Source of the DNA: Oceanispirochaeta sp.
Lineage (GTDB): Bacteria; Spirochaetota; Spirochaetia; DSM-2461
Direction of reading: 5' to 3'
Length of the DNA stretch: 64,000 nucleotides
Assembly: GCA_963663385.2 (NCBI GenBank)
Contig: CAXXXD010000004.1
Coordinates: 1 to 64,000, forward strand
The stretch's first letter is position 1. Each line of letters begins with the position of its first letter. A program made the position numbers. Below are positions 33,001-42,000 of this stretch, in pieces.

Positions 33001-36000
33001 GTGCTGTAGGGGATATTGTGATCATCCAGTATCTGGTGTGCCTTATGGGCAACCTCCCATTCCAGCCCCGGCTCTTCCTGCCCGTTATGTTCGGTTATAT
33101 CCCCCAGGTGGATGACGAATTTAATATTCCTTTCGTCTCTGTTATCCGCAATCCACCGGGTCTGCCTTTCATACAGATTGTACTTCACGGCTCCCTGTTC
33201 CGTATATTTCTGTGTATCCGGAAGGAGGATGACGGAAAAGCTCCCGGAAGGTTCAAGCCCCCGGTTTGCGATTGTATCATCCGCAAAAAGAGTCATGGAA
33301 TAGATGAAACTGATCAGCAGCAGGGCATATCTATACATAACGGCCTCGTGATATGTGTCTGTTTTTATTATAATATGAAATTGGAAAGCTTATGCAATGA
33401 ATCTAATCTGATCACTTCTATGACAGGTTCAATCATAAAGTTCGCCTTGATACTGCAGATCCGGTTTATACACCTCTACATCCTATAAATGATTGTCTGC
33501 CAGTAGTTGATTAAGACCCCAGAATCCCGTAGCATAGTCCCACATCTCATCTTTTCCTGTTTCTATATCAAACAGGTTTCCGCGAACGGCTGCGGATATC
33601 GAAACAGGAGGAATCTTCTATGAAATCCAAAAGACTCTTTCCCCAGGAGCTTGCCTATCTGCTGGGTATTGTGATGCTGGCGCTAAGTGCCTCGTTAATG
33701 GCCCGGGCGAATCTAGGCGTCTCTATGGTGATTGCTCCGGCTTATCTTATCTATCTTAAATTGTCGGTACTCTATCCGTCTTTTACATTCGGTATGGCCG
33801 AATACGGACTGCAGGGAATCCTGTTGATCGCTATGGTTCTGTTTCTGAGACAATTCAGGATCAGCTACCTCTTTTCGTTTATCACCGCAGTATTCTACGG
33901 ACTGGTTCTCGATTTCTGGATGATAGGCGTAGAGCACTTTGACCATGTCCATGGCCTGCCTCCTCTGCTCTACTTTGTATCAGGTCTATTTCTGGGGGCC
34001 TTTGGTGTTTCCCTGCTGTTTAAAACCTACATATCTCCGGAGGTTTACGAACTCTTTGTAATGGAAGTTTCATCTCGCTTCGGGATCGGGATCAGCCGCT
34101 TTAAAACCGGTTATGACATTACCAGCTGTCTACTGGCGATAGCCCTGTCGTTCCTGTTTTACGGATTTCCACACTTCGAGGGCGTCAAATGGGGGACTGT
34201 AGTCTGCGCCGTTGTTAACGGCCCGCTGATCGGTCTATTCAGCAAATGGATGGAGAACCGCCTGAATTTCATTAGGGTGCTGGAGAGAAAGAAGGTTGCC
34301 GGATAGGTGTAGAATGATTCATTAAGGTAATCAGTACTATTTCGGGCTGTTTCCTGATCATTTTCTGAAAAGGCTCTGTTAATACAGAGTTTCCACTAAC
34401 CTATCGGTCTCTCGCCAATGACTGGGATCCTGTCAAGCATTATCAATGCTGAGAGTGTTGTGATAGACAAAGGTCGGTTAATCAAAAGCAGTTTTGAATA
34501 ATTCGTTTGTGCGGGAAAAAAATAAACAGAAGATTAAATTCTACAAAAAAAAGCAAAGAAAAGCATATATATTTCAGATTGGACTTAATAAACTAATGAA
34601 ATATCAGGCGTCCTATAGGACTTAATAGGGAACCGGGTGAGAATCCCGGACACCCCCAGGTACTGTAAGAGAAGAGGGTAGCGATACGGATTGAAAGTGC
34701 AACACTTTCTGATATATCCGGCCACTGCGGCTGTTTACCGGCTGCGGGAAGGCTTTGTTTAACCGTTTAATTCTTGAGTCAGGAGACCTGCCTGAAAAAC
34801 CGTTCATAGAACGGGGTCAATAATCACGATCTTCTGGGTTGGAGAGGGTGTACCCGTATTAAACAAAAGAATATTCCGGAATTATTCCCACCAGAAAGAT
34901 CTCCGTTTTGAGGGAGAAAAAATGAAAAAGCTGTCTATCGTTCTAATCAGTCTCTTACTGATCACAGGTATGCTGTTCGCCGGGGGAACCCGGGAACAGT
35001 CCGCTTCCGGCAATGCTTCACCAGCTGTGCAGGAGCAACAAAAAGATTTAGCAACAATAAGTGCGGACAACGCCAGACTCGTTGTCTACGGCAACGCAAA
35101 CAATGATGATTTAATTAATACGCATGATGTTGATATCATTGGTGATATAGCATCAGGAAAAGCTTCCTGGGATAAAACCGCCAATCCGTTTGCAGATGCA
35201 AACGCCGATGGAAAAGTCGATTCGAGTGATGTAGATCTGGTTGAAAAAATAGTAAACAAAGAAAAATGCACAGTGTATTACAGAGACTTTCAGGATGAAG
35301 CAGTTGCTGTAAATTATCCAATTACCGGGACTGTAGGAACAATGTATTATCAGCAGGCTCAGCTCTCCATTCTGCTCGGTCTATGGGACAAAGACGTTAT
35401 TGCCTGTGGGGTTCGAAACCTGAATGATACAATTGCCCCCGGATTCGAACAGAAGATATCTTTCGGGCAGGGCTATAATGTTGATCCGGAACTGGTGGTG
35501 GAATCAGGGGTCGACACGCTTATCTGTTATACTCAGACTGATACGACCGCACCAGATATTAAAAAACTGGTAAGGGCTACCGGTTTGGATCTTAATGTCC
35601 TCTGCATCAACCATGAATCACTTCTTGAATGTGTCGTCACATACGGGTTCCTGTTCGACAGAGAGAATATTTCGCTAAAGTATGCTGAATATGCGGACAA
35701 CTCTGCCAGTATTATAGATGAAAGTCTGAAGAATGTTTCCCGTGAAGAACAGCCGTCGGTAGCCACTGTCATGCTTTATGGTAAAGCGACAACAGATAAA
35801 ATACGTGTCCTGGGGTATAATCCTATGGGCAATACAAACAATCTGCCGAAGCTTGTCCATTCAATACCTAATAACAATTGGATCAGGGCGGATCTGGAAA
35901 ACCCTGCCTATGGAACATACGTTACCTCAGAGTGGTTTATTGAAAATGATCCCGATTATATACTCCTGGCGGTATCCGGGATTGGCACTACGCCTGAAAT

Positions 36001-39000: not shown

Positions 39001-42000
39001 ATATCCAGGGCCTTTATAGATCTTGCCGGTGCAATCTCGAGAGTAAGAGTAGAATGAAGAGAGAACCATTTGGAATCCCCATAAGCGATCTTTGCGGAAC
39101 AGCAACCCACTGGAGACGCAAGATTATGCCTGACGACGCTCTGCACTTCATGCCTCCTCACGGCGGAGGTTGGGGAATTGTCAGGACCGCGTTGGAGCTT
39201 CCTGATTCCGTTGTGCTTATGGCTGCGCCGTCGGTCTGTGCGAGGAGCACGGGGCTCCGCGAGCTCTATCTTGAATACAGGGACCGGTTCTTTTTTCTCG
39301 ACATCAGTGACCGCAATTTTGCAGACGGAAGTTTTGAAAAACTGATTCTCCAAGCCGTCGATGAAATTATGGAATACCTTAACAACAGCCCTGCGGTCTT
39401 TATGTTCTGTCAAACCTGTATAGACGATGTGATAGGTTCGGATTATGAACATCTGCAGAGAAGGGTTGAAGCAAAATATCGAATCAGGACTGCATCAATT
39501 CACCTGAAGCCGACAACTGCAGAAGGTAAAAGGCCTTCGGGGCTGCTGACTCAGCGTTCTATATTCAATATGATCAGGACGGTAAAATTGAGAGATAAGG
39601 GGATTAATCTGCTCGGTTCCGTGCTGCCTGTGTCATCTGAAAGTGAGTTCCACGACATTGTCCAGGCGGCGGGAATTGGTCCGCTCCGTCATCTGACAGC
39701 CTGTGACTCTATGGAAGATTTTGATATGATGAGCGCCTCATCCTGGAATATTCTGATGAGGCCGTCTGCCCGACTGGTCGTCAATGATATGAGGAAAAAA
39801 TACGGAACACCCCATGTCAATCTTACGGGTGCATTCAGTATAAAAAACGTCGATGCTAACTACCGGCTGCTGGAAGATTTCTTCGGTAGGAATCTTAACA
39901 CAGAAGGTTACAGAGATGAATGTGTTGACTTCATCTCCGGCAATACTCCGGAGTTCAGGGGCATGACGGCAGCGGTAGGATCAAGCGTTTACACGGGAAC
40001 ATTCGAACTGGCACGTGCTCTCGTTGAATACGGATTCGATGTAAAATACATATTTGCTAATATTATAATAGATTTCGACTCTGAGCATTTGCAGTGGCTT
40101 AAGGATAATGCTCCGGGGATTATGCTGTATCCGAGCTCACACACAAGCATGTCTCAATTTCACAGCCTTGGCCAAAAAGTCGATATTGCATTCGGGTTCG
40201 AGGCTGGATATTTTTGCGGCGAAGCGCCGACTGTACCGATGCTGCCGTATTATACTGATTTCGGTTATCAAGGCATCAGGGCTTTGATTAACGAAATTAA
40301 AGAGGTGATTAATAACCCCCGTCCTCATATGGAATCCATGTATGAATCATTTTATAGGCGAGGTAAAAATATATGAGAGGTTTAAATAAGAAACTCCCTC
40401 CCTTTTCTTCGGATATTGCGGGAGCATGCGCCTCTCTTTTCGGTATGGGGGGTGTGGTGGTCGTACACGAACCGGCATGCTGTACAAGCTGCTACACGTC
40501 CTATGACGAACCAAGGTATTACGGCAGCTCAAGTCCGCTATACAGCTCTGAACTGAGGGAAATCCATCTGTCCACCGGAGACGACGAAACAATCCTTAGA
40601 AGGATTGAGGCGGCGGTTAAAATAATCGACTGCCGCTTCATTGCAATCATAGGCAGTCCGATTCCGATGTTTGCCGGAACCGACTACAACGCCCTTGCAC
40701 GGGAGACGGAAAAAAGGACAGGCATTCCTTCCATCGCAGTGGAAACAGGAGGATTCGACCGATACGATAAAGGGGCTTCCAAGGCATTATTACAATTAGC
40801 CCGGAAATTTATTCCGCCTGTGGCAAAGCGTGAATTGGACGATGTAAAAACCGGGGAAATTCGCAAAATTAATATAATCGGAGCTGTGGCGATGGACGGC
40901 ATCAGGATCAGAGGTACAGGAGGGTTGGCTGAATATTATACTCATAAAGGAATCGAAATAAATTCAGTATTTACCGACGGATCTTCAGTGGTCGAGGTTT
41001 TAAAAGCCGGAGCCGCAGATCAGAATGTTGTTATTTCCGTTTCTGGGCTCAGTACTGCCGAATATCTGAAAAACAGCTTCGGAATTCCCTACACTTGTGG
41101 AATCCCGATATATCCACCGGGGTCTTACGAACCTGCGAACGGTTTAAAAATCGGAAAGGGTCTGATCATCGGAGACCAGATAATTTCCAACTCAATTCGC
41201 AACTGCCTCTGCAGAGACTTCGGGATTCCTGATATCCGGGTTGCCTCTTTCTTTTCCATGAATGAACGCATTATGCAACCGGGAGATTGCCGTCTTGATG
41301 GAGAAATCGATCTTGAGAAAATGCTCGCGGATGTTGATTTTGATTTCCTGATTGGAGATCCGGCATTCCTTCGATTTATAGAAGATTATCCTGAAAAACG
41401 TTTTATTTCCCTTCCTCATACTCCGGTTTCAGGGTTTTCCCCCCTTCGAGAGGATCCTGTTCTCGTAGGAGAAGCCGGATTCAGGTTCTTTGAGAGCAGA
41501 CTTGCTGAATGGGGATAAGCGGTGTAATAAATTGGGGTGATTGTAATTGCCAGTGGGAACTGTCATTCTTAGGTATAATATCCCTCTCCTCAGTTATAAA
41601 ACCCTTCTGTCTTCAACCATTTCAGATAATGCTGAATCTTCAGATCCCAGTATTCCCATGTATGTTCGTATCCCGCATCCTCTTCATAGGTGAATGAAGC
41701 TGACAGATGACCCAGGTAATTATTAAATGATATATTGGAATCATATAAAAAATCTTTCGTTCCGCAGCATTGATACAAAGCGGGCAGTTTCCGGCCTTTT
41801 TCCATATTCTGCTTTAAAAGCCATTTCAGATCATTTTCCGTATCTGTGATAACAGGATTTTCGCCGAAAATGGCTTTCCAGTCCCTGTCATCTACCGCCT
41901 GTTCTAGACCGGAAGGCAGATCAAGGGCCCCTGAAAAGCTCCCTGCCGAACAATATCTCTCCGGATACGAAAAAGCCAGCTTAAAGGCTCCATACCCTCC

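Follow-up and report, generated by a model that had tools for sequence, protein, structure and literature searches.

Within the window, by which we mean the entire 64,000-nt stretch of Oceanispirochaeta sp. DNA analyzed here, a complete cobalamin riboswitch aptamer is followed on the same strand by six co-oriented ORFs that encode a solute-binding protein, a FecCD permease, an ATPase, and the nitrogenase-like (NFL) proteins NflH, NflD, and NflK (Table 1). The first-gene ATG lies 112 nt past the riboswitch. This layout, together with a paralogous trio on contig C2, agrees with a preliminary description of the locus. The region 33000-43000 recurs with 0 differences in one public contig, which may be the source of this sequence, and a second strain covering 33000-41522 carries 13 substitutions and one gap.

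Table 1. Features of the riboswitch, importer, and NflHDK unit (window coordinates).
Feature	Position	Strand	Details
Cobalamin riboswitch aptamer (RF00174)	34589..34809	+	92.4 bits versus gathering 31.5; model 1-189 complete
Short hairpin that would pair the first-gene Shine-Dalgarno	34900..34917	+	putative translational expression platform
Class-III (helical-backbone) solute-binding protein with dockerin-like domain	34922..36277	+	
FecCD/BtuC-family permease, archaeal type	36291..37424 (longest ORF from TTG 36246)	+	FecCD E 9e-92
Importer ABC ATPase	37429..38208	+	ABC_tran E 2e-30
Gap between importer and nflH	38209..38301	+	93 nt; only long gap of the unit
NflH, Fe-protein-like ATP-dependent reductase	38302..39057	+	Fer4_NifH E 6e-79; P-loop, Cys94, Cys130
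NflD-like subunit	39054..40376	+	Oxidored_nitro; C62 and C122 are equivalents of alpha-Cys88 and alpha-Cys154
NflK-like subunit	40373..41518	+	Oxidored_nitro; C37 is the equivalent of beta-Cys95

The hairpin that would occlude the first Shine-Dalgarno sequence is present in both the MFE and centroid folds of 34780-34935, a segment that folds no better than shuffled sequence (z 0.14), and we regard it as a candidate translational platform. Riboswitch action may be limited to translation of the first gene. On the + strand, the gap ahead of nflH is free of sites resembling a terminator or a sigma70 promoter, and we infer that the riboswitch through nflK is co-transcribed as one operon.

The importer is of an archaeal type

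The binding protein has no Peripla_BP_2 match in Pfam, and its Dockerin_1 match (E 1e-3) falls below the Pfam cut-off. Its class-III fold is evident from an AlphaFold model (pLDDT 84.7), Foldseek, and Atlas; the modeled fold resembles YiuA/FepB (~15% identity), and its top structural matches are iron-chelate binders. Its Atlas neighbors are 96-100% archaeal, and alignment with relatives reveals a Methanomassiliicoccales-type body joined to a different, bacterial-looking N-terminal leader. The protein was not found in 37 other genomes of its own order. The permease groups inside the archaeal-type permeases, with 71% identity to Ca. Methanomassiliicoccus intestinalis versus 30-37% to the NFL family's own permeases, and the ATPase is 69% identical to that of archaeal locus L111. 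Judged by these sequence comparisons, the window importer is a separate archaeal (Methanomassiliicoccales-type) subfamily and not the MolABC-like importer usual in the NFL family; the earlier view that it is of the usual type is true only at the Pfam level.

The type II importers BtuFCD and MolABC (HI1470-72) belong to the same transporter family, but the window importer differs from them as a separate subfamily. The top NCBIfam model for its permease is BtuC at 232.7 bits, which is under the cut-off of 334, BtuF is not among the listed top 50 structural ranks of the binding protein, and a corrinoid ATPase model ranks second for the ATPase, again below cut-off. The importer was therefore not assigned to BtuFCD. 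These shortfalls make orthology less likely and leave a corrinoid ligand possible.

The nearest archaeal importers (L111, L112, and L115) adjoin a different NFL clade, the fused NifH-NifE plus NifN-like system of Methanomassiliicoccales, a fusion noted in two earlier reports (PMC3464626, PMC4153887). That system differs from the window trio by its H-D fusion, a NifH portion with 37-38% identity, and three Cys in the D portion. Parts of it occur in 10 of 79 archaeal-importer loci, and none of the 79 carries a cobalamin riboswitch directly before nflH or the importer. Association of such an importer with an NFL is thus seen in more than one clade. The window importer and the NflHDK trio differ in origin, and the sequence relationships suggest an archaeal-bacterial chimera wherein an importer from Methanomassiliicoccales has replaced the family's own.

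NflHDK has a reduced set of P-cluster cysteines

NflH residues Cys94 and Cys130 are kept in 79/79 sequences. The protein scores 293.6 bits with CfbC (cut-off 402) and 285.8 with nifH (cut-off 394), and its HMM order is CfbC > NifH > BchL > BchX; our own tree contained no Group V or VI rows. For NflD, an AlphaFold model (pLDDT 91.8) predicts a nitrogenase component-1 fold (TM ~0.7 at 13-19% identity), and its C62/C122 pattern, with the alpha-Cys62 equivalent missing, is kept in 81/81 sequences. NflK retains C37, with an invariant Asp14 at the beta-Cys70 position and Pro at the beta-Cys153 position (76/76). When aligned to the nitrogenase-type chains of G039, the two subunits retain three of six P-cluster Cys. 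Weak PDB sequence matches (E 1e-5 or worse) include Fe-nitrogenase alpha chains and chains of methylthio-alkane reductase (MAR).

No nifB (TIGR01290) exceeds its cut-off in the 98% complete genome, and the only four PF00148 matches are the two D/K pairs, leaving no candidate for nifEN. Because nifB is absent, half of the P-cluster Cys are gone, and an Asp is invariant, the system is neither a nitrogenase nor a MAR, and the claim that its substrate is neither N2 nor an organosulfur compound is supported as regards N2 and MAR-type organosulfur chemistry. From the conserved residues, NflDK would ligate its cluster through C62, C122, C37, and perhaps D14.

Importers and a presumed DtxR-type box accompany the wider family

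The window and C2 trios share 52% (H), 27% (D), and 32% (K) identity; the C2 importer is encoded on the other strand and converges on nflK. As had been described, the gene is mostly absent from its own order, with the NFL family found in only 1 of 37 other genomes. The family had also been called rare, which holds for the window subclade (among 12 matches, another 9 proteins reach >=47% identity) and less so for the family, of which a single peptide pattern retrieved 254 GTDB stretches and a search at E<=1e-3 yielded 581 cluster representatives. D-K fusions occur in the family.

We examined 80 core GTDB loci, chosen as the best 80 of the 254 against one core query and therefore mutually related; a Desulfitobacteriaceae MAG (L011) is represented among the loci. 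A binding protein and FecCD permease lie <=7 kb from nflD in 67 of the 80, and 11 of the 13 others end <2 kb from nflD; at locus L218, the trio has no importer in ~9 kb. The tight coupling reported previously is thereby supported. The usual importer is MolABC/4OVK-like; besides MolABC, core importers are similar to CeuE, which binds nickel. The pairing seen in the window recurs on ENA contigs of 9735 and 186921 bp, with permeases 94% and 90% identical and NflD proteins 76% and 73% identical, if contigs of matching size are the same.

The palindrome GTTAG-N6-CTAAC occurs <=250 nt from nflH in 46/76 loci when exact (shuffle mean 0.02) and in 54/76 when one mismatch is allowed (shuffle mean 0.62); at the operon level it precedes 64 of 75 NFL operons. 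It also stands ahead of FeoB/feoAB, DtxR-family genes, flavodoxin, and DUF3793. We presume it to be DtxR-type from its likeness to the DtxR consensus. Of the 11 sites in the Petroclostridium genome, 9 cluster in a single 52-kb island that also holds feoAB, nflHDK, FecCD importers, and a DtxR gene; note that a reversed-pattern control also gave 11 sites, and so the regulon there is backed by clustering only. An operator-like palindrome common to iron-uptake genes, with a DtxR gene nearby, suggests that in most of the family the module belongs to a DtxR-type, probably iron-responsive regulon, and its sharing with feoAB places this NFL clade in metal acquisition. DtxR proteins are described as sensors of Fe or Mn in PMC11672702. 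For the window operon, the span 34300-38320, including the gap before nflH, has no box site at <=1 mismatch, and the exact box is missing there and in the five other loci of the same NflH subclade. Therefore, the iron link is carried over from the core subclade.

Besides importers, the family has metal-cofactor genes as neighbors (those for a nickel-insertion protein, HypF/HypD, a CobW/HypB GTPase, and CO dehydrogenase), and no non-transport family exceeds 16 of 82 loci. Locus L219 has two NFL copies adjoining HypF/HypD and one radical SAM gene. No cobalamin riboswitch lies directly ahead of nflH or the importer in the 80 core loci (own model; Rfam on 14 of 80), and locus L074 has a sub-threshold one plus a DUF4430 gene upstream of nflH. 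Thus, B12 control is not the rule for the NFL family. Five of the seven cobalamin riboswitches in the Oceanispirochaeta genome precede FecCD importers, which, with the box in the wider family and the iron-chelate binders among the top fold matches, undercuts the proposal of a corrinoid NFL substrate drawn from the riboswitch.

Comparison with characterized and described systems

The Cys/Asp pattern and transporter neighborhood fit an unlettered clade of Dos Santos 2012 (Mlab_1040/1039, Dhaf_1539/1540, Coprococcus catus, and Dorea longicatena; PMC3464626), which is set alongside here by description and not by sequence. As described there, its D proteins have Cys at alpha-88 and alpha-154 and its K proteins at beta-95, a non-Cys cluster ligand was proposed, ABC transporters adjoin, and two linked copies lie by hydrogenase-maturation genes, as at L219. 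The ABC association, previously presented as new, is thus already in that source, where metal transport coupled to cofactor assembly was suggested; its passages on the clade give no regulation, riboswitch, importer subfamilies, or D-K fusions.

DPOR (BchLNB) and COR (BchXYZ) of Group V share the H/D/K architecture without NifB, ATP-driven reduction at a simple cluster, and possibly 3Cys+Asp ligands. However, in DPOR, BchN contributes three Cys and BchB the Asp, whereas the window D subunit offers two Cys and the K subunit one Cys plus Asp, the Bch models score far below cut-off (BchL 186.8/345, BchB 34.2/490 bits), and the annotated neighbors include no photosynthesis genes; Group V was rejected. 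CfbCD (Group IV-B, F430) shares the two-Cys D and gives the best NflH score, but was rejected given the distinct K subunit and the sub-cut-off CfbC score, and the window system differs also in its bacterial host and importer coupling. Group VI of Elusimicrobia (Meheust 2020, bioRxiv 10.1101/765248), with a proposed tetrapyrrole role and NifH sister to Group V, likewise has highly divergent D/K, <=4 P-cluster Cys, and no NifB; its neighborhood is radical SAM-rich, whereas importers adjoin the window family. For NflH, the CfbC and NifH models outscore BchL and BchX. Also rejected, judged by residues and gene content, were Mo/V/Fe nitrogenases (Groups I-III; 3/6 P-cluster Cys, no nifB or nifEN), Group IV-A/C/D/E (Nfa, MAR, and relatives), for which PMC13474568 and PMC13753814 give P-like cluster Cys and an NflB/NifB maturase as features, against 3/6 P-cluster Cys and no nifB here, and Group IV-F isethionate reductase (ISR), which has a radical SAM gene (isrB) next to it and a sulfonate transport setting, against ORFs >250 aa with CxxxCxxC in only 4/80 loci and an importer of FecCD type here.

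Discussion

We consider it about an even prospect that NflHDK is an ATP-driven low-potential reductase that acts downstream of a FecCD importer on imported metal chelates or tetrapyrroles, the substrate range that had been proposed and that our data support. By its transporter family, the importer would take in a metal chelate or metallo-tetrapyrrole. The NflH dimer, whose motifs are present, would by homology hydrolyze ATP and pass electrons from its [4Fe-4S] cluster to a simple interface cluster on NflDK, without a NifB-type cofactor, and reduction of the bound complex would then release the metal or make the ring usable. Iron would be the family default, and the window lineage may have been rewired to cobalamin sensing. 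Since its importer was swapped and the unit lies behind a riboswitch, expression here is most likely at low B12, and the most likely use of the window NflHDK is scavenging of cobalt, a corrinoid, or a related tetrapyrrole.

The importer might instead bring Fe, Ni, Mo, or Co while NflHDK reduces an endogenous precursor on the way to a metallocofactor, much like CfbCD in F430 synthesis, a role offered by Dos Santos 2012 (PMC3464626). The characterized NifB-independent simple-cluster NFLs (DPOR, COR, and CfbCD) all reduce endogenous tetrapyrroles (PMC13474568), and both the metal-cofactor neighbors and the MolABC- and CeuE-like core importers agree with this role. Nevertheless, a box common to feoAB and flavodoxin would be unexpected for a metal-consuming biosynthetic enzyme, and no biosynthetic partner is conserved, which makes cofactor building somewhat unlikely.

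We judge it less probable again that NflHDK is specific for imported corrinoids, which it would reduce or remodel (cob(II) to cob(I), for instance, or a ring reduction), whether in this lineage or family-wide. The strong riboswitch, the sub-cut-off BtuC and corrinoid ATPase matches, the L074 arrangement, and a genome with cbiD and six B12-binding domains and without cbiJ point this way, but no riboswitch directly precedes nflH or the importer at the 80 core or 79 archaeal-importer loci, most cobalamin riboswitches of this genome head a FecCD importer anyway, and BtuF is missing among the listed top structural matches.

It is quite improbable that the riboswitch rules the importer only, with nflHDK read from a weak promoter of its own inside the 93-nt gap or co-transcribed without functional coupling to this importer; the different origins of importer and trio, the sole long gap, and the nonsignificant hairpin pointing to first-gene control would fit, but that gap lacks a promoter- or terminator-like site on the + strand, the pairing is seen again on two size-matched contigs, and the archaeal relatives of the importer adjoin an NFL too. 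A divergent nitrogenase, MAR, or ISR, suggested by the nitrogenase fold and the weak PDB matches, is largely refuted and extremely improbable given the missing nifB and P-cluster ligands, HMM scores far under cut-offs, the scarcity of CxxxCxxC ORFs, and no sulfur-assimilation family among 34 annotated recurrent neighbors.

A 2026 review (PMC13474568) names the undefined functions of NFL systems as a major open problem and finds that gene context yielded little past sulfur and tetrapyrrole hints. Regulation offers a handle, in that a conserved, presumably DtxR-type box ties a clade widespread in gut and sediment anaerobes to metal uptake, and in the window this enzyme stands under B12 control, next to an importer acquired from methanogenic archaea. 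Returning to the metal-release reading, we advance only tentatively its broader form, in which a large NFL branch unpacks nutrients by using ATP-driven low-potential electrons to free metal from imported complexes such as ferric siderophores and metallo-tetrapyrroles. Its module would be interchangeable across domains of life: around the NFL, importers would be swapped, as would the regulators, with a DtxR box serving for iron and a riboswitch for B12. The window locus would then be a chimera of archaeal and bacterial parts, adapted to cobalt or corrinoid. If true, metal release would be a novel function of the nitrogenase fold and would also account for part of the non-N2-fixing nifH-like signal in gut metagenomes.

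A cobalamin riboswitch heads an importer and NflHDK operon

The operon comprises the riboswitch and six co-oriented ORFs encoding a binding protein, a FecCD permease, an ABC ATPase, a NifH-like protein (NflH), and two PF00148 proteins (NflD and NflK). The first gene starts with the ATG at position 34922, 112 nt after the riboswitch, and successive ORFs are separated by 13, 4, and 93 nt or, in two cases, overlap by 4 nt. The next gene runs convergent to the operon. A public contig, which may be the source of this DNA, matches window positions 33000–43000 with 0 differences, and a second strain spans 33000–41522 in one piece. 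Because both cover the unit proposed in the preliminary description, it is real and not an assembly artefact. In the second strain, a 1-nt gap occurs at 41439, where depth is low, and the match ends 4 nt beyond the nflK stop, at window position 41522, followed by ~2 kb of unrelated sequence; this break is a possible insertion boundary. A foreign origin is not marked by GC content, which is 0.44 to 0.49 in the operon versus 0.46 to 0.47 in the genome.

Promoter and terminator counts across the operon were no higher than in shuffled sequences, and a hairpin predicted over the ribosome-binding site of the first gene was not significant. Because no + strand promoter or terminator was seen in the 93-nt gap between the ATPase gene and nflH, the importer and nflHDK are likely to be co-transcribed as one unit.

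The second NflHDK trio, on contig C2 of the same genome, was likewise found with an importer of its own, which is convergent with the trio and on the other strand. Its proteins are 52, 27, and 32% identical (H, D, and K, respectively) to those of the window. The four D and K genes of the two trios give the only PF00148 matches in this 98% complete genome, in which a search for nifB found none. Because five of the seven cobalamin riboswitches in the genome precede FecCD importers, such importers tend to be under B12 control in this organism. Two cobalamin riboswitches lie back to back on contig C1 (G000), 87 nt apart, and head divergent operons, with a FecCD importer on one side and genes including an ORF judged by eye to be TonB-receptor-like on the other. 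The genome also carries cbiD and six B12-binding domains over the cut-off, and cbiJ was not found in it. This gene content indicates that the host makes or salvages corrinoids.

Coordinates of features in the window, elsewhere in the genome, and in related loci
Feature	Location	Strand	Remarks
Cobalamin riboswitch	window 34589-34809	+	92.4 bits, full length
Metallophosphoesterase, secreted-looking	window 31107-33338	-	743 aa; repetitive C-terminal region without Pfam match
ORF with Cys motifs	window 29394-30356	+	320 aa; CxxC..CC and further Cys motifs; possibly Fe-S or Zn protein
Paired cobalamin riboswitches	G000 C1:92633-93110		
Fused NifH-NifE and NifN-like system	L111:13184-16638		beside dockerin-bearing FecCD importer; Methanomassiliicoccales-like archaeon
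Fused NifH-NifE and NifN-like system	L112:16229-19643		as for L111
Fused NifH-NifE and NifN-like system	L115:12-3409		as for L111
Candidate cobalamin riboswitch with DUF4430 and small membrane protein genes, core locus	L074:7620-8955		riboswitch below Rfam gathering score
nflHDK with nickel-insertion gene	L217:7488-18901		
Tandem nflHDK copies with hyp genes	L219:4137-16946		
Cluster of box sites, Petroclostridium	G039:C1:4961555-5013290		52 kb

NflHDK carries a reduced set of candidate cluster ligands

NflH carries the P-loop and both cluster cysteines, the latter retained in 79/79 family members, and its profile scores fall below the cut-offs for CfbC (293.6/402) and nifH (285.8/394) and likewise for BchL and BchX. 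The NflD model (pLDDT 91.8) adopts the nitrogenase component-1 fold, with a TM score of ~0.7 at 13 to 19% identity in structure comparison. Among 81 D and 76 K sequences, the sole invariant cysteines are D-C62, D-C122, and K-C37, and K-D14 is also invariant. When aligned with the nitrogenase-type chains of Petroclostridium, these four residues occupy the alpha-C88, alpha-C154, beta-C95, and beta-C70 positions, respectively, and the equivalents of alpha-C62 and beta-C153 are lost. By analogy with DPOR, the cluster of NflDK would be a simple one at the subunit interface, held by three Cys and possibly one Asp. Among the best 150 matches, 22 of the 23 homologs longer than 600 aa are single-chain D-K fusions (within proteins P0025–P0140); this supports the view that D and K work as a single unit. 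NflD homologs with one internal TAG occur in two small genomes that belong to the same genus (L211, on G518:C94, and G658:C107).

Exactly the same cysteine pattern is given by Dos Santos et al. 2012 (PMC3464626) for a clade comprising Mlab_1040/1039, Dhaf_1539/1540, and Coprococcus and Dorea proteins, for which a non-Cys ligand was suggested and nearby genes for ABC transporters and hydrogenase maturation were noted. By its defining features, the window NflHDK is assigned to this clade, noted in 2012 without a function. In one literature search, the Dhaf and Mlab tags were traced only to that paper. The consulted parts of a 2026 review (PMC13474568) describe none of Groups IV-A to F, V, and VI with an importer context like that of NflHDK, and the word "riboswitch" is absent from its text. 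Group definitions and background on DtxR also draw on PMC13753814, PMC11423573, bioRxiv 10.1101/765248, PMC4153887, PMC9447857, PMC9431491, and PMC11672702; the passages of PMC9431491 and PMC9447857 held nothing bearing on the clade. Within openly available papers and the main text of the 2012 study, no riboswitch- or DtxR-controlled nitrogenase-like system was found.

Importer genes lie near nflHDK in most core loci

A GTDB scan with an alignment of the core family yielded 254 confirmed stretches, of which the best 80 were kept. Note that these loci, from Bacillota, Treponema and other spirochaetes, and Synergistota, are those closest to a single core query and cannot be counted as independent of each other. 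The usual gene order is H-D-K-binding protein-permease-ATPase. Binding protein and permease genes both lie within 7 kb in 67/80 loci, and 11 of the other 13 end less than 2 kb from nflD. Among known structures, 4OVK and Haemophilus influenzae MolA/MolB are the best matches both for the C2 importer and for a binding protein from one core locus. Recurrent neighbors (Crp regulator, CobW/HypB GTPase, DtxR regulator, flavodoxin, FeoB, DUF3793, heavy-metal ATPase, and CO dehydrogenase) each occur in at most 16 of 82 loci. A cassette of Crp, CobW/HypB GTPase, ABC ATPase, and SBP_bac_6 genes adjoins nflH in L022, L024, L034, L041, L060, L081, and others, with a CO dehydrogenase gene too in four loci.

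Two further loci belong to the window's own NflH subclade. In L217, nflHDK is divergent from genes for a DeoR regulator, a FecCD importer, and a TrmO/FmdE protein and from a nickel-insertion gene with LarE/LarB-like neighbors; in L219, a radical SAM gene precedes nflHDK in two tandem, divergent copies, behind which lie genes for HypF, HypD, and a HypE-like protein. Overlapping samples of the class and the phylum (401 genomes each) held distant members only, in 17 and 13 other genomes, respectively, and none of the close subclade. When metagenomes were scanned with an NflD alignment of the close subclade, none of the 231 pattern matches was confirmed, and a search of viral contigs revealed no NflD relative.

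The window importer is of archaeal type

The preliminary description held that the window carries the importer usual for the family. However, the permease is only 30 to 37% identical to 65 core-family permeases versus 66 to 71% identical to those of L111–L113, and L111 carries ribosomal protein L15e. In a quick tree built from 56 of 146 matches, it nests among archaeal-type rows (SH-aLRT 99 and 97). The nearest named permease is that of Ca. Methanomassiliicoccus intestinalis (71%). Sequence relationships thus indicate that in the window an importer from archaea has taken the place of the family's usual one.

Archaeal look-alikes exist for the binding protein, most with a different leader, and a search of the order (37 other genomes) did not recover it. 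Structure search identified a class-III binder fold closest to YiuA and FepB at ~15% identity; at this level, the absence of BtuF among the top matches listed is weak evidence. PDB sequence searches returned dockerins only. Among archaeal importers for which flanking DNA was at hand, the closest (L111, L112, and L115) adjoin a different nitrogenase-like system, a fused NifH-NifE and NifN-like pair whose D part has three Cys. At least parts of this system were seen in 10 of the 79 archaeal-importer loci (two of the 10 near-identical). Only 27 of the 79 reach 10 kb, and none of them all yielded a riboswitch.

Permeases 94 and 90% identical to that of the window lie on ENA contigs with lengths of 9735 and 186921 bp, respectively. 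NflD proteins at 76 and 73% come from ENA contigs of these same sizes, as does a binding protein at 80% (186921 bp). The matching sizes suggest that the window pairing of importer and NflD recurs on two other contigs.

A DtxR-type box precedes most core-family operons

A covariance model built from the seven cobalamin riboswitches of the genome identified none directly before nflH or the importer in the 80 core loci, and Rfam, run on 14 of these, gave no cobalamin match. The model gave one candidate in L074, below the Rfam gathering score. Located 280 nt upstream of nflH, it heads a DUF4430 gene and a gene for a small, probably ECF-like membrane protein.

An unbiased palindrome count instead recovered exact GTTAG-N6-CTAAC, which resembles the DtxR/IdeR consensus, upstream of nflH in 46/76 regions of 250 nt (shuffles, 0.02). 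With one mismatch allowed, the box occurs in 54/76 (shuffles, 0.62), with at least two sites in 34. When sites in front of a binding-protein or Crp gene that opens the operon are counted as well, 64/75 operons carry it. The box also precedes FeoB, DtxR-family, flavodoxin, and DUF3793 genes in core loci (L010–L089; Bacillota and Treponema). Of the 11 sites in the Petroclostridium genome, 9 cluster within 52 kb that also hold nflHDK, feoAB, a DtxR gene, and ABC importers of FecCD and other types; the reversed-pattern control also has 11 sites genome-wide. Two Treponema genomes gave 4 versus 1 and 7 versus 2 sites (box versus control), some before unrelated genes. Cultured carriers of the box include Petroclostridium sp. 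X23, Treponema saccharophilum, and Faecalispora sporosphaeroides.

DtxR proteins sense Fe or Mn (PMC11672702). Iron is favored because feoAB and flavodoxin carry the box, and GTTAG-N6-CTAAC may mark an iron regulon of the DtxR type in these anaerobes. Other candidate regulators were rejected: upstream of core nflH, Fur consensus matches showed a weak excess (12/76; shuffle mean 5.8, maximum 10), and Crp/Fnr and Rex boxes were at shuffle level in the 76 regions. No box was found in the window operon, and no exact box in other loci of its NflH subclade (L001, L109, and L217–L219).

Proposed function of NflHDK

We propose, with about even confidence, that NflHDK is a reductase acting on an imported metal complex. 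The importer and nflHDK of the window would be expressed as one transcript, NflDK would carry a simple Fe-S cluster, and the complex brought in by the importer would be the substrate, to be reductively released or converted. What the analysis itself shows is the parts described, the ligand pattern, the absence of NifB, an importer linkage conserved in two nitrogenase-like clades, a metal-type operator in the core family, and the window riboswitch.

For the 2012 clade, Dos Santos et al. propose metal transport coupled to cofactor assembly (PMC3464626); that NflHDK builds a cofactor with imported metal seems to us unlikely. Less likely still is a corrinoid-specific enzyme. The preliminary description had taken the riboswitch as a pointer to corrinoids; the DtxR-type box across the family shifts the default from corrinoids to iron. 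We consider it improbable that nflHDK is merely a passenger in this arrangement, given the 93-nt gap free of recognizable + strand signals. Nitrogen or sulfur chemistry is very improbable, no nifB having been found.

What is new in the window locus is the arrangement of an archaeal importer and a B12 riboswitch around NflHDK. For the family as a whole, the DtxR-type box offers the chief new handle and renders the function of NflHDK testable.
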